From an uncultured bacterium (lineage in GTDB: Bacteria; Bacillota_I; Bacilli_A; RFN20; CAG-826): 64,000 bases of DNA. The DNA is taken from NCBI GenBank assembly GCA_949295325.1, contig CASFKG010000001.1:485119-549118 (forward strand). Direction: 5' to 3'. The notes under the pieces are model-generated. The model saw only the letters and a list, made by a program, of their open reading frames with translations, did no database searches and was not told the origin of the DNA. Numbering within the stretch: position 1 is the first letter of the stretch; every line of letters starts with the position of its first letter. Both the position numbers and the translations under genes were made by a program. Positions 15,040-63,715 of this stretch are shown piece by piece.

Positions 15040-15154
15040 CTAATTTCTTCTCCTTTGTGCTGTGCTTACTATGTAAGCCGCCACAATTATAGTGGCCTTT
15101 TCGCCATTGAGAAAGAGAAGGGCAAAAAGCCTTTTATAGAGTAGAATAGGCACG

Positions 15155-16093
15155 ATGAAGCAGAAGGCTACTTATATCCTCTACTTCCTGAAAAACCTGC
15201 CGTCTTCCCTGGCCATAAGGTTTTTCCGTAAGGGGAAGGACGTTACCCGCTTCAACGGGCAGAAGGGAATTACCCTGGAATATTCCTCCAAGGTACTGAG
15301 GGGATACATAAACAAAGGGGAACCCTTCAGCGCGGTGCGTTTCGGGGCCAGCGAACTCGGCTGCCTGAATGCGACCGAGAAAATAGACCTCGGCTTCAAG
15401 AAGACATACAAACCGGCGGTAAGGGACTCCATGAAAAGGAGGGCCGGGTACTATCCAACGGGCGATAGGCACTTAAGCGAATACAGCCACACCTTCTTCG
15501 AGAAGTGCAAAGGAAACGACATCCTCGCCATAAGCGGCATCCACATGGAGGACTATTTCGCAAAGAAATACATGCCTGATGCCAAGATAATCCAAAACCT
15601 TGCGCTGGAACCATTGCTAGGCGGTTGGACCGATTTGCTAAAGGGCAAGAAGGTATTGGTCGTTTCGGGCTTTGCCGACGACATCAGAAAACAATACGAA
15701 AGAAGGGAAAAACTCTTCCCCAAGGATAGCGGCATCCTGCCGGAATTCGACCTCAAGGTTTTGGAGGCCCCGCTTACGTCGGGGGATTCGGTGGACGAAC
15801 GTTTTCCGAGCTTCATGCGTTATCTCGAGGAGATGGAAGAAAGGATCAGGACCATCGACTTCGACATCGCCCTCATCGGCGCTGGGGCCTATGGCAGTCT
15901 CCTCTGCTTCTATATCAAGAGCCTCGGGAAGATGGCCCTTCAGACCGGCGGGGCCACCCAGACGCTTTTCGGCATCATCGGGAAGAGATGGGAAAACCGT
16001 GATTACGTGAAACAATATATAAACGAATATTGGGTGAGGCCGAGCCGTAAACCGCTCGGCTATGAAAAAATCGAAGGAGGTTGCTATTGGTGA
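15155..16093 (+). CDS. Putative GT-D-fold (DUF1792-like) glycosyltransferase
   Basis: PFSAVRFGASE, LKGKKVLVVS, DFDIALIGAGAYG, GGATQTLFGIIGKRW; typical of capsule-locus proteins. Confidence 0.6.
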   Translation: MKQKATYILYFLKNLPSSLAIRFFRKGKDVTRFNGQKGITLEYSSKVLRGYINKGEPFSAVRFGASELGCLNATEKIDLGFKKTYKPAVRDSMKRRAGYYPTGDRHLSEYSHTFFEKCKGNDILAISGIHMEDYFAKKYMPDAKIIQNLALEPLLGGWTDLLKGKKVLVVSGFADDIRKQYERREKLFPKDSGILPEFDLKVLEAPLTSGDSVDERFPSFMRYLEEMEERIRTIDFDIALIGAGAYGSLLCFYIKSLGKMALQTGGATQTLFGIIGKRWENRDYVKQYINEYWVRPSRKPLGYEKIEGGCYW

Positions 16094-17583
16094 AGAATAA
16101 ATCTTTCGACCTAAGTAGATTATTGCCTTATCTAGGTCCTAGCGTCGCCTTGGCGGTGCTCTTCCTCTTGGGTTTCGGCTTCGGAGGAACGCAGGGCGGC
16201 ATGATCGGTTACTTCGTGGTTTTCTTTATACTTGCCGTCTATTTTGTCTTGATGGCAAAAGCCCCGCTGTTCGGAAAGAACGCCGAAAACGGACTCGATC
16301 TTCTCTACGCGATACCCCTGCTGGTCTTCTGCGTCTTCGGTTCCCTAAACCAGTTCTACGGAGGTACTTTTGGCGGAATCGCTTCCGGCCTCTTGCTTCT
16401 ATTCGGCTTGCTTGGGGCTTTCCTATCCGGCTATTTTCTCCGCAATAAAGGGATAATGAAGGCGAAATACGCCGTTTATGCCGTGTTGGCCGGTCTCGCC
16501 CTCCTCGTCTTCGTAAATTTGGTCGCAAATCTCGCTTCTTATCCTCTGTTTTATTCCTATAACTTCGGGAACTACGTTTATTTCTACGAGGGCATTCCGC
16601 ATTTAATAGGGAACGAATCGCAGTTCCTCTACGGCTTTGGCCTAATGCCGATGTCGATGGATTACGCGGTGTTCCCGGCCATCGTCCTCTCGAGCGGTCT
16701 AGGGATGCTCTTCTATATCGATCCCAAGAAGAACGACTTGAAGAGCCACGGGCTCTACGAGTTCATCGCGGTCGCCGTGTTCGGGGCGATAGGTTGGCTT
16801 TTCCTCGTTTCCATGGTGGAGATCAAAGGGATGGTTCTTTCCTTATTGATAATCGCCGCCTCGGCTTTCTACCGCTTCGCTAAGTTAAGCAAAAAGCCCT
16901 CCAAGGCGGCGGTGGGAACCTTCCTTGCCGTTGTTGGCATCCTCATCGCCTTCTTCTTATTTGTTATCGCTAACGCGGTCTTCGAGCCTTCCTTCTTACA
17001 GGAAGGATTCCTCGGGAAGATATTCAATTCCGGGTATTTGCTACCCATCAACCAGACCATCAGCACCCTCTTTAACGGAGGAACTTATCGCGACGCGACC
17101 GCTGGTCAGGTCATACTTTCCATCCTTTTCGGGGCCTCGAGCGAAGGCACGACTACCTATGGTGTTACCTCTCCTATTTCGGTGCTCGACATCTCCAATT
17201 TCGCCTTCGAGTTCCAAGTGCTCCTCGAAGGCGGCTTCCTCGCCTTCATCGGGCTGGTCCTCCTGGTTTTGTTCTCCGTTAGGACCATCCGTCGCAATAT
17301 GGTCGAAGGGAAGGAGGACCCGGGCAAGGCCGGCATATCGATATTGCTTGTCGCGATACTTCTTACCGCGACCTTCTACTACGATTCGTTGCCCTTCGCG
17401 GTGACCCGTTATAGTTCGAGCGCCTATCTCTCGCCGCTTCAAAACAGCGTCTATCCGCTTATCGCCCTCTTCTTGCTGGGTTTTGTTTATCAAAGAAACG
17501 ATGTCGAAGAGAAAGACATAGAAGAGGAAGAACCCGAGGAAGAAATAAAAGAAGACGGGTCCGACGTCTTGGAGGTCCAGTGA
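16090..17583 (+). CDS. Polytopic membrane protein, possibly Wzy polymerase/O-antigen-ligase-like
   Basis: GAAGGAGG RBS then GTG overlapping the upstream TGA; about 12 TM segments with a late external loop; glycan-cluster context. Confidence 0.5.
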   Translation: MKNKSFDLSRLLPYLGPSVALAVLFLLGFGFGGTQGGMIGYFVVFFILAVYFVLMAKAPLFGKNAENGLDLLYAIPLLVFCVFGSLNQFYGGTFGGIASGLLLLFGLLGAFLSGYFLRNKGIMKAKYAVYAVLAGLALLVFVNLVANLASYPLFYSYNFGNYVYFYEGIPHLIGNESQFLYGFGLMPMSMDYAVFPAIVLSSGLGMLFYIDPKKNDLKSHGLYEFIAVAVFGAIGWLFLVSMVEIKGMVLSLLIIAASAFYRFAKLSKKPSKAAVGTFLAVVGILIAFFLFVIANAVFEPSFLQEGFLGKIFNSGYLLPINQTISTLFNGGTYRDATAGQVILSILFGASSEGTTTYGVTSPISVLDISNFAFEFQVLLEGGFLAFIGLVLLVLFSVRTIRRNMVEGKEDPGKAGISILLVAILLTATFYYDSLPFAVTRYSSSAYLSPLQNSVYPLIALFLLGFVYQRNDVEEKDIEEEEPEEEIKEDGSDVLEVQ

Positions 17584-62051: not shown

Positions 62052-62564
62052 ATGGGCGATCAAAGTCTAATCAAGAAAATCGTGGCCAATGGTCTACTGG
62101 CTGCGATTTATTTTGTTCTCTGCATTCTCTGCGGGCAGTTCGCATACGGTCCGATTCAATTCAGGATTTCCGAAATCCTGGTTCTGTTATGTTTTTTCCG
62201 CCCAGATTTCATTTGGGGCGTGACGATCGGAACCTTCCTTGCGAACATCATGTCAATCAGCATGTTCGGTCCTTGGGACATGATTTTCGGGACCCTCGCC
62301 ACTTTAATCGCCGCGGTGGGCTGCGCGTATCTGTCCCCGCGTCTGCTCGTCGCCTGCGCTTGGCCGGTTTTGGTGAACGCGGTGGTCGTTGGACTGGAAC
62401 TCTGGCTCATAACCGAAACGCCTTTCTGGCTCAATTTCCTGACCGTCGGGGGAGGTGAACTGGCCGTCATCGCCGCCGGCTATGTATTGCTACTGTTCCT
62501 GATAAGGCGTCCTTCCTTTACCGATTCGTTGTCCTTTACCCGCCATGTCGCGGTCAAGTGGTAG
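62052..62564 (+). CDS. queT: QueT queuosine-precursor transporter
   Basis: AAIYFVL, AYGPIQFRISE, DMIFG, PVLVN. Confidence 0.93.
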   Translation: MGDQSLIKKIVANGLLAAIYFVLCILCGQFAYGPIQFRISEILVLLCFFRPDFIWGVTIGTFLANIMSISMFGPWDMIFGTLATLIAAVGCAYLSPRLLVACAWPVLVNAVVVGLELWLITETPFWLNFLTVGGGELAVIAAGYVLLLFLIRRPSFTDSLSFTRHVAVKW

Positions 62565-62593
62565 TTGGCCCTAAACAGGGCTAGAATACCCCG

Positions 62594-63715
62594 ATGTCAT
62601 TTTATCTAGAGGTTGTACATGTAGATGCCGGGTCGGGGGCCCGCTACGGCATACTCCACACTCCCCACGGGGACGTCGAAACCCCGATGTTCATGCCCGT
62701 TGGCACTCTGGCCACGGTCAAAACGCTTTCTCCCGAGGAAGTGAAAGCATGTGGAGCCGGCGTCATTTTGGCGAATACCTATCATCTCCATTACCGGCCA
62801 GGCGAAGACATAGTCGAAAAGGCCGGCGGGCTTCATGAGTTCATGAACTACGACGGACCCATGCTTACCGATTCGGGCGGCTTCCAGGTTTTCTCGCTTT
62901 CCAGCAAAAGGAAATTGACCGAGGAAGGCGTCCGTTTCAAAAACGACTTCAACGGCAGCGAGGAATTGTTGACCCCGGAAAAGGCCATCGAAATCGAAGA
63001 GAAGCTCGGGGCGGACATCATAATGTCTTTGGACGAATGCATTCCCTATCCCGCGGATTACGATTACGTCAAGGATTCCACCGAAAGGACCATTCGCTGG
63101 GCCAAAAGGGGACTAGATGCCCATAAAAGGAAAGACCAGGCCCTCTTCGGGATAGTCCAAGGCGGAGCCTATAAGGATTTAAGGGAATACTGCGCGAAGG
63201 AGCTCGCTTCTTTGCCTTTCGACGGCTATTCCATCGGGGGAACCTCGATCGGGGAACCAAAGGAAGTGTGTTTCCAGATGATCGAAGACGGCATCCGTTA
63301 TCTGCCTAAGGACAAGCCGCGTTACCTCATGGGCGTCGGCTCCTTGGATTATTTGCTAGAAGGTGCCTTCCGCGGGGTCGACATGTTCGACTGCGTCTTG
63401 CCGACCCGTCTAGCAAGGCACGGTACCTTAATGACCTCTTTGGGCCGGGTGAACATACAGGACTCCAAGTACAAGGAGGACTTCACCCCACTCGATCCCA
63501 ACTGCGACTGCTATACCTGCAGGCACTACACGAAGGCTTATCTCCGGCATTTGCACATGGCAAACGAGGAGTTCGGCAAAAGGCTCAACTCCATCCATAA
63601 TATCCGTTTCCTGATAAAGACCATGGAAGGGGCAAGGCGAGCCATAAAAGAAGACAGGTTCACCGAATATAAGAACGAAGTACTGTCCCGCTACGGCGAC
63701 AAGAGGGGATTCTGA
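62594..63715 (+). CDS. tgt: tRNA-guanine transglycosylase
   Basis: [49 protein letters not shown]. Confidence 0.99.

Follow-up and report, generated by a model that had tools for sequence, protein, structure and literature searches.

Leaderless genes in known bacterial groups

Leaderless initiation is regarded as characteristic of Actinobacteria, of Deinococcus-Thermus and of archaea. In the GeneMarkS-2 scheme, group C is defined by a Pribnow box 6-8 nucleotides (nt) before first genes, with 25-50% of operons quoted for group C bacteria, and the group is reported to take in 90% of Actinobacteria, 97% of Deinococcus-Thermus and 36 of 1064 Firmicutes (PMC6028130). The last figure agrees with an earlier reading of the DNA studied here, made from the letters alone (the sequence-only reading), which held this arrangement to be rare in model Bacilli. 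Here we report on a 64-kb stretch of contig CASFKG010000001.1 from an uncultured bacterium of gut or rumen type (the window; a single genome stretch of 52.6% G+C, on which all window counts were made), in which many genes that lead a transcription unit have a hexamer of the form TANNNT, separated by 6-8 nt from the start codon, and no Shine-Dalgarno (SD) site. These box-led genes probably have sigma-70-type promoters that would start transcription at the start codon or a few bases from it, which is the group C architecture in a Mollicutes-related lineage of Bacilli. The finding is a known architecture in a new lineage.

Like group C genomes (most Actinobacteria, such as Mycobacterium tuberculosis, and Deinococcus-Thermus), the window has a box 6-8 nt before first genes, SD sites on internal and leadered genes, and a large share of operons with the arrangement (PMC6028130, PMC12340547). 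It differs in lying within Bacilli, in its medium G+C content, in a partial TGn extension with a very weak -35, and in the share of units concerned, ~60-65% in the window, a figure from 64 kb alone, against the 25-50% quoted (PMC6028130). In Mollicutes promoters, as described for Mesoplasma florum, the -10 is strong, TGn is conserved in part, the -35 is degenerate and the transcription start site (TSS) follows the box by 6-7 nt (PMC7745072); the first three of these make up the promoter profile found in the window. However, M. florum is reported to have few leaderless transcripts (nine genes are named) and a mean 5' untranslated region of 58 nt, against ~30% box-led genes here (PMC7745072), and sampled loci of the Izemoplasmatales type show no box enrichment. 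Within the Firmicutes, Lactococcus/Streptococcus and Oenococcus/Leuconostoc (Lactobacillales) resemble the window in having a TAtAAT plus TG peak directly before starts; the same survey assigns the leaderless genes of Firmicutes for the most part to Lactobacillales and to five Mycoplasma genomes (mean of predicted leaderless genes 18.3%), and gives a Firmicutes mean of 4.2% and a maximum of 16.6% of genes, against ~30% here (PMC3160421). In the Bacteroidetes-type group B, an A/T-rich motif near the start likewise replaces the SD site, but it is described as preceding all genes, internal ones included, and therefore cannot be a promoter, whereas the box in the window stands on unit-leading genes beside a normal SD system (PMC6028130). 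We found no literature tying leaderless genes to the order RFN20 or to Enteromonas; among the matches listed, no literature was found on leaderless genes with Enteromonas, Erysipelotrichales, Izemoplasma or Acholeplasma.

A promoter-like hexamer directly before start codons

The sequence-only reading had listed 20 combinations of hexamer, spacer and start, and on rechecking the coordinates all 20 were found exactly as written (Table 1). The spacer is 6 nt in eight of them, 7 nt in nine and 8 nt in three, and the start codon is ATG in 16, GTG in four and TTG in none, so that each transcript would open with a purine. Together with two extra candidates described below, these sites account for 20-22 of ~34 units (~60-65%) and ~30-35% of genes, and the earlier estimate that two thirds of units are leaderless is about right. 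The unit count is made up of the 20 listed starts, the two extra candidates and 11 SD-bearing leaders, with 39885(-) and the doubtful 92-aa ORF at 19893(-) left unassigned.

In order to compare the spacing with chance, TANNNT was recorded before in-frame ATG or GTG codons within the first 35 codons of the 58 called genes. Spacers of 6, 7 and 8 nt gave 6, 8 and 3 matches, against a mean of 1.06 for each spacer from 9 to 40 nt (Poisson p = 5e-8). A box at 6-8 nt is present in 17 of 57 genes, while local shuffles, in which the 40 nt (or 20 nt) preceding every candidate start were permuted so as to keep the local A+T richness, gave 3.96 +/- 1.86 with a maximum of 13, and none of 2000 reached 17. 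When longest open reading frame (ORF) starts were taken alone, a choice blind to the motif, 11 of 57 had a box, compared with 9 of 486 single decoy sites (p = 7e-9). Internal decoy groups of start-like codons had a box in 2.0% of 460 cases, and 50 kb of E. coli K-12 put through the same pipeline yielded 2 of 41 genes with a box at a decoy rate of 2.8%. Among 64 patterns of the form X1X2NNNX6 scanned at spacers 6-8, TANNNT came top (13/55 genes, 11.5x decoys).

These data bear directly on the view that the boxes reflect chance and selection, starts having been picked after loose A/T-rich hexamers in A/T-rich intergenic DNA. Several points weigh against our reading here. Seven of the 20 starts differ from the longest-ORF start and lie inside longer ORFs, which means that they were chosen, or moved to fit, with the motif in view. 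The hexamers TATCCT, TAATAT, GATAAT and CATAAT are loose, and two of them, GATAAT (20201) and CATAAT (52630), have no T at position 1, leaving 18 of 20 that match TANNNT. Where the spacer is a multiple of three, such as 6 nt, an in-frame TAA or TAG at the boundary of an ORF can pass for TANNNT, an artefact that affects 34762 and 62594 alone; spacers of 7 and 8 nt are immune. Finally, when a 50-kb stretch of the D. radiodurans megaplasmid MP1 served as a positive control, a box preceded no more than 4 of the 42 starts in the annotation and, with the pipeline, 3 of 41 genes; this is above the decoys (3/450) but low, so that either the simple rule undercounts or the stretch is atypical, and it calibrates poorly. 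Nevertheless, chance does not account for the motif-blind result, for the excess over composition-keeping shuffles (17 against 4.0), for the lack of enrichment at neighbouring spacers in the same upstream DNA, or for the retention of the box in orthologs from other species (see below). On these four grounds we reject it as having next to no probability.

Promoter element or translation signal

Enrichment falls on T1, A2 and T6, which match the -10 hexamer of sigma-70 promoters, and it is confined to 6-8 nt. A TGn extension, which had been noted for several boxes, is present in five of the 20 (20213, 28485, 31028, 54835 and 60323), compared with 3.4% of 946 TANNNT sites, and G stands at -14 in nine of 20. 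The earlier statement that box-led genes have no SD site also holds, since a strict box and an SD site occur together in none of 56 genes, 17 of which have the box only, 24 the SD site only and 15 neither. Tightly coupled internal genes have an AGGAGG-type SD site or overlap the upstream stop codon, and out of ~23 genes that overlap or lie at most 20 nt behind a same-strand gene, two (31028 and 61016) have a box. For SD-led eno, glnA, queT, mscL, nrdD and the thiT-like gene, and for tRNA-Ala, -10 boxes are found at ordinary leader distances, 18-80 nt upstream in the case of the SD-led genes. Within the first 22 codons of box-led genes, there is no alternative start that bears an SD site.

Weighing against a promoter, the -35 region is weak, with a mean best match of 3.1/6 at the boxes and 2.58 at all TANNNT sites, and scans for two-hexamer sigma-70 promoters found no excess over shuffles (9 against 14.4 +/- 3.6, and 15 against 14.8 +/- 2.9) and recovered 4 of the 20 sites, 52701 among them. 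We read the null result of the two-hexamer scans as a weak -35 rather than as absent promoters. The same weakness could be taken to mean that the T/A-rich hexamer is a non-SD translation signal on leadered mRNAs, as in group B of the Bacteroidetes type or as an A/U-rich ribosome landing site. This we consider improbable, given that it is T1-A2-T6 in particular that is enriched, ranking ahead of the other 63 patterns, with TG or G enriched at -15/-14; that box and SD site exclude one another; and that AGGAGG before many genes shows the anti-SD system to be in use. Furthermore, a group B motif is described as preceding all genes (PMC6028130), but among the ~23 close-following genes the two named above are alone in having a box. 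A promoter element therefore remains our reading of the hexamer.

Conservation among orthologs and distribution across lineages

For comparison we used 80 glnA loci with at most 10 kb of flank, which cover the part of the window from 39 to 64 kb, the box-led genes at 15-35 kb falling outside; many loci are syntenic with the window at 46-64 kb. Proteins of metagenome-assembled genomes (MAGs) titled "Bacilli bacterium" share 80-82% identity with the GlnA protein of the window; where the title is Candidatus Enteromonas or "Bacillales bacterium UBA..." the figure is 72-76%, and for Izemoplasmatales it is ~60%. Candidatus Enteromonas, a name with which no entry of the NCBI taxonomy opens, is given as GTDB genus UBA733 of order RFN20, family CAG-826 (PMC8035907), and RFN20 is described as an uncultured order grouped with Mycoplasmatales, with a common ancestral node in the reconstruction (PMC10868615). 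In a FastTree glnA phylogeny of 79 loci and the window, from which locus L026 was left out because its best match had a stop, the window falls inside a 33-locus clade, to which L007, L013 and L055, the loci titled Candidatus Enteromonas, also belong. From this single-gene tree we provisionally place the window in RFN20.

Orthologs were counted in loci with at least 69% glnA identity, with a box defined as TANNNT at 5-10 nt. For genes that are box-led in the window, the box is retained in 20/21 orthologs of AAA_33 kinase 1 (SD 2/21), 26/26 of kinase 2 (SD 6/26), 21/24 of tgt (SD 0/24), 8/11 of the rimK-like gene (SD 0/11), 5/5 of nadE (SD 0/5) and 2/3 of prs (SD 0/3). Three genes run counter to this: the gtrA-like gene (box 0/2, SD 2/2), the gene for a 197-aa protein (box 0/1, SD 0/1) and dinB (box 1/6, SD 5/6). 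Pooled over these nine genes, the box is kept in 83 of 99 orthologs, and an SD-like 4-mer is present in 15 of 99. Genes of the SD class show the reverse, with a box in 1 of 135 orthologs of seven genes: glnA (box 0/45, SD 34/45), queT (0/12, 12/12), nrdD (0/19, 18/19), the M29 peptidase gene (0/6, 6/6), queA (0/20, 11/20), the gene for a 311-aa protein (0/30, 29/30) and mscL (1/3, 0/3). Across orthologs the position of the box is fixed while the spacer sequence is free to vary. Outgroup orthologs of dinB have TATAAT ~30 nt upstream together with an SD site, compared with TAGAAT 7 nt before the ATG in the window.

The same picture is obtained from gene families. The 569 genes of the window and the 33 clade loci fall into 127 families. 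A box-led member occurs in 39 families; most members are box-led in 32, and most have an SD site in 48. The large families lean strongly to one mode or the other: among the 27 with at least five members, box-led ones have the box in, for example, 31/46, 23/31, 17/21, 14/17, 7/7 and 6/6 members, and SD ones have the SD site in 28/34, 28/30 and 7/7. Judged from these sequence comparisons, initiation mode is conserved gene by gene, family by family, across dozens of related species.

Of the 514 genes in the 33-locus clade, 158 have the box alone, defined as TANNNT at 6-9 nt in the absence of an SD site, at a decoy rate of 2.7%, while in the 46 loci outside it the count is 52 of 557 at a decoy rate of 7.4%, close to the observed rate. 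Ordered by glnA identity, observed and expected numbers are 12 and 3.1 (at least 78%), 152 and 75 (69-77%), 13 and 15.9 (65-68%) and 69 and 91 (below 65%). In the pattern scan, TANNNT is again top in the 33 clade loci (110/491 genes, 11.1x decoys), but in 47 outside loci SD-like patterns are top and TANNNT is not among the first six. A point that weighs against us is that the loci share syntenic genes, one neighbourhood for each genome, so that the clade counts are not independent and form a trend rather than genome-wide proof. With that qualification, the box architecture is, as far as these loci indicate, a heritable trait of an uncultured clade of Bacilli that includes Candidatus Enteromonas (RFN20), and it is not seen in the sampled neighbour lineages. 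A further step is that the RFN20/Enteromonas-like clade switched most of its units to leaderless initiation while the sampled sisters (Izemoplasmatales-type loci and other low-GC "Bacilli bacterium" MAGs) kept SD-dependent leadered starts, making this a comparatively recent and independent origin of group C within the Firmicutes; on this we are evenly divided. If the clade did switch, gene-by-gene series such as dinB could serve to trace the accompanying changes in the ribosome, initiation factors and RNA polymerase. A Firmicutes clade with ~30% box-led genes beside relatives that do not have the trait is a compact comparative system for the turnover of initiation modes.

Transcription start and the question of short leaders

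The hexamers would be -10 elements of promoters for the housekeeping sigma-70/SigA factor, relying on the -10, sometimes extended by TGn, with a weak -35. A TSS normally lies 6-8 nt after a -10 box. RNA polymerase would then start at the first base (A or G) of the start codon or 1-2 nt before it, giving mRNAs with neither a 5' leader nor an SD site, the first gene of which would be translated by the leaderless route, with the ribosome binding the 5'-terminal AUG or GUG directly. Downstream genes of operons would use ordinary AGGAGG-type sites or coupling, and a minority of unit leaders would use such sites too. We infer the TSS from the 6-8-nt spacing, a dependence that weighs against the reading, and the translation route from general knowledge of leaderless expression. 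All sequence and comparative tests that were run support the leaderless interpretation of the sequence-only reading, in the sense of no leader or one of 0-4 nt.

It is conceivable, if unlikely, that the boxes are real promoters of genes that are not strictly or exclusively leaderless, either because transcription starts 2-5 nt upstream of the start codon or because the boxes are secondary or internal promoters beside leadered or read-through transcripts. Two observations speak for this and against our reading. Firstly, relatives commonly have spacers of 8-10 nt. In the Enteromonas-like subgroup (L053-L070 and others) the distance is often 9-10 nt before tgt and kinase 1, compared with 6-7 nt in L001 and the window, and the group with 69-77% glnA identity has a peak at spacer 9; spacers of 9-10 nt, found in many relatives, imply leaders of 2-4 nt rather than none. 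Secondly, at 31028, 54835, 61016 and 62594 a gene on the same strand ends 18-37 nt upstream, with no terminator-like hairpin seen in between by the scans, and read-through transcripts may therefore also exist; in M. florum, promoters near gene ends are reported often to coexist with upstream promoters (PMC7745072). On the other hand, 17 of the 20 spacers in the window measure 6 or 7 nt, as is canonical between a -10 box and +1, and a read-through transcript would be poorly translated from genes that have no SD site. By convention, leaders of up to 5 nt are also counted as leaderless. The reading we prefer remains transcription that begins on the start codon or a few bases away from it.

Firmicutes promoters can sense the initiating NTP. 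For this reason we speculate that the choice of ATG or GTG in a leaderless gene would set initiation with ATP or GTP, coupling start-codon identity to control by the nucleotide pool.

Accuracy of the called starts

Thirteen of the 20 box-led starts coincide with the longest-ORF start. Pfam domains begin at residue 4 in kinase 1 (P-loop domain) and at residue 7 in PcrA (UvrD-helicase profile position 1) and Prs (N-domain), leaving no room for a later start. Ortholog alignments of kinase 1, kinase 2, Prs and NadE open at residue 1 of the claimed Met, and those of Tgt within two codons of it.

The sequence-only reading had claimed that the boxes correct many ORF starts, and for the seven that were moved the outcome is mixed. 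Orthologs back three: alignments for 52701 and 60323 open at residue 1 with the same Met, the L001 and L002 orthologs of nadE (52701) sharing it and a stop codon in L001 barring any earlier start, and distant orthologs of 45037 start within 1-2 codons of its Met. A fourth, 28485, is weakly backed, in that residue 3 of B. subtilis TsaE aligns with residue 14 of the long form, which is residue 8 counted from 28485; this alignment is compatible with either start and appears slightly to favour 28485. The other three, 20213, 23576 and 41262, are candidate starts, which weighs against our reading. The GT4 protein of the ORF at 20195 has no match in a PDB sequence search, and for that of the ORF at 23609 the PDB alignment covers the C-terminal domain alone. 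Both GT4 proteins would open with Met-Arg-Ile-Leu if read from the box-led starts. Met-Arg-Ile-Leu is a common opening of the first strand in GT-B enzymes.

Also on the negative side, the 133-aa ORF 45450-45851 has no Pfam match and no homolog in the compared loci. The ORF that follows it, a 302-aa NrdG-like radical SAM frame (region 45450-46552), is over-extended, as homologs align from residue 62-72 or later; its true start is ~45857, 5 nt after the stop of 45450-45851, with neither SD site nor box, which suggests coupling. Other over-extended ORFs in the window are those of the thiT-like and sugar-binding protein genes and 33742-34824(-). ORF 45188-45595(-), which competes with the 133-aa ORF, was rejected as a gene; its sole match is antisense to tRNA-Ala.

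Gene callers trained on SD sites will misplace starts in these genomes, as the seven of 20 box-led starts that depart from the longest ORF illustrate. Metagenomes from rumen, gut and digesters often contain this clade, so that its protein catalogues inherit the start errors.

Features of the window

The window contains ~58 protein genes and one tRNA-Ala, which was the sole match in an Rfam scan of the window at gathering thresholds; it includes neither a 16S gene nor a marker set. Besides the genes listed in Table 1, there are ligA, two genes for GT4 glycosyltransferases and two for AAA_33 kinases in all, tsaE-tsaB-rimI-tsaD, the M29 peptidase gene, nrdD with a thioredoxin-reductase-like gene, mscL, queT and queA. 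No box-led gene occurs in the first 15 kb, which hold the sugar operon. In the operon headed by 15155, the downstream genes at 16087/16090 and 17583 have AGGAGG or GGAGG. The 92-aa ORF 19615-19893(-) has no family match.

Table 1. Coordinates, in window numbering, of the box-led starts, extra candidates, SD-led contrast genes and the sugar operon
Gene or product	Coordinates	Strand	Promoter hexamer and spacer	Start	Remarks
GT-D-like protein	15142..15157	+	TAGAAT, 7 nt	ATG 15155	first gene of 15155-18503 operon; longest-ORF start; no SD
TupA-like ATP-grasp	19390..19404	-	TATACT, 6 nt	ATG 19392	longest-ORF start; no SD
GT4 glycosyltransferase	20201..20215	+	TGG-GATAAT, 6 nt	ATG 20213	6 codons inside longest ORF (TTG 20195)
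GT4 glycosyltransferase	23574..23589	-	TATACT, 7 nt	ATG 23576	11 codons inside longest ORF (TTG 23609)
UDG-family glycosylase	23626..23641	+	TAATAT, 7 nt	ATG 23639	divergent from 23576, start codons 62 nt apart
DUF402 gene	27010..27025	+	TATAAT, 7 nt	ATG 27023	
tsaE	28471..28487	+	TGG-TATACT, 8 nt	ATG 28485	heads operon tsaE-tsaB-rimI-tsaD
Class II aminoacyl-tRNA synthetase, Asn/Asp type	31015..31030	+	TGC-TAAAAT, 7 nt	ATG 31028	box within 18-nt gap 3' of tsaD
pcrA/uvrD	34750..34764	+	TAAACT, 6 nt	GTG 34762	ligA next, with AGGAGG; in-frame TAA opens hexamer
GH3 glycosidase	41250..41264	+	TATAAT, 6 nt	ATG 41262	TTGGGA 16 nt upstream; 2 codons inside longest ORF
dinB-like polymerase	45035..45050	-	TAGAAT, 7 nt	ATG 45037	next gene 43799 with AGGAGG
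133-aa hydrophobic protein	45438..45452	+	TAGACT, 6 nt	GTG 45450	nrdG-like radical SAM gene next
RimK-like ATP-grasp ligase	52620..52635	-	CATAAT, 7 nt	GTG 52622	
Glutamine-dependent NAD synthetase (nadE)	52688..52703	+	TATCAT, 7 nt	ATG 52701	
GtrA-like membrane protein	54821..54837	+	TGT-TATAGT, 8 nt	ATG 54835	
AAA_33 kinase 1	56077..56091	-	TATCAT, 6 nt	GTG 56079	
AAA_33 kinase 2	60321..60336	-	TGC-TATATT, 7 nt	ATG 60323	
197-aa protein without family	60392..60406	+	TATCCT, 6 nt	ATG 60404	weakest box of the set
prs, ribose-phosphate pyrophosphokinase	61002..61018	+	TATAAT, 8 nt	ATG 61016	
tgt	62582..62596	+	TAGAAT, 6 nt	ATG 62594	queA next, with GAGG
413-aa protein (extra candidate)	25648..25665	+	TATATT, 9 nt	ATG 25663	no SD; TTGGTA-16-TATATT
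Pyridine nucleotide-disulphide oxidoreductase (extra, weaker candidate)	28443..28460	-	TGG-TATATC, 9 nt	ATG 28445	no SD; hexamer outside TANNNT; mirrors tsaE promoter
eno (SD-led contrast)	15037..15113	-	TTCTCA-16-TATAAT	ATG 15039	leader with AGGAG
nrdD (SD-led contrast)	49841..49954	-	promoter-like site 49954-49927	ATG 49843	AGGAGG 5 nt before ATG
glnA (SD-led contrast)	56127..56181	+	TTGATA-16-TATAGT	ATG 56179	~18-nt leader with GGAGG
queT (SD-led contrast)	61961..62054	+	promoter-like site ending 61989	ATG 62052	preQ1-I-like leader 62000-62045; AGGAGG
Sugar-utilisation operon with GH16 enzymes and ABC transporter	1-13.6 kb				

The extra candidates at 25663 and 28445 go beyond the 20 starts listed earlier. 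Between 28445(-) and the divergent tsaE (28485), whose start codons are 39 nt apart, lies a perfect 18-bp palindrome (28457-28474), each half of which is an outward-facing extended -10 of the form TGG-TATA(C/T)(T/C); the palindrome could equally be an operator. Three further divergent box-led pairs occupy 23574-23641, 52620-52703 and 60321-60406, with start codons 62, 78 and 80 nt apart, and the intergenic DNA of each consists of two back-to-back promoters with overlapping -35 zones. Two back-to-back -10 boxes can serve start codons 39-80 nt apart, a small-genome packing of divergent genes.

SD-led genes and their leaders

The sequence-only reading put the number of unit leaders with an SD site at about 11, and 11 were counted: 2035(-), 2230, 15039(-), 24443, 34686(-), 39937, 49843(-), 50180, 56179, 58797 and 62052. 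It also proposed that leaders are kept mainly where a gene is regulated or highly expressed; eno, glnA, nrdD, the sugar operon and two riboswitch-like leaders agree with this, although the number of genes is small. Its mention of riboswitch control rests on two matches, both below the Rfam gathering scores. The preQ1-I-like leader of queT scores 23.1 bits where the threshold is 39 (E = 0.004, search space 111 bases), and this leader, with its A-rich tail and AGGAGG, is kept upstream of queT in related genomes. The thiamine pyrophosphate (TPP) riboswitch match at 24309-24443, before a ThiT/YuaJ-like gene, scores 50.7 bits against 54.3 (E = 5.5e-7). Here the GGAGG that serves the likely true start, ATG 24443, is paired in a hairpin (24417-24436) with a complementary CCTCC stretch upstream. 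It follows that the 350-aa ORF starting at 24407 is over-extended and that the thiT-like gene is probably controlled at the level of translation. In the sugar operon, the sugar-binding protein gene (region 2149-2232) has TATAAT at 2170-2175, a ~50-nt leader with an inverted repeat, and then GGAGG and ATG 2230, within an over-extended ORF, a layout that fits the fragment of a LacI-type regulator at 3-563.

NrdD (47453-49843(-)) has a C-terminal glutaredoxin domain at residues 721-774 and is followed, with an 11-nt overlap, by the thioredoxin-reductase-like flavoprotein gene. A G+C-rich hairpin adjoins the -10 box of tgt (62560-62596 in the window, and also in L001 near 16765), and in the gap between queT and tgt terminator-like and promoter elements lie within ~30 nt.

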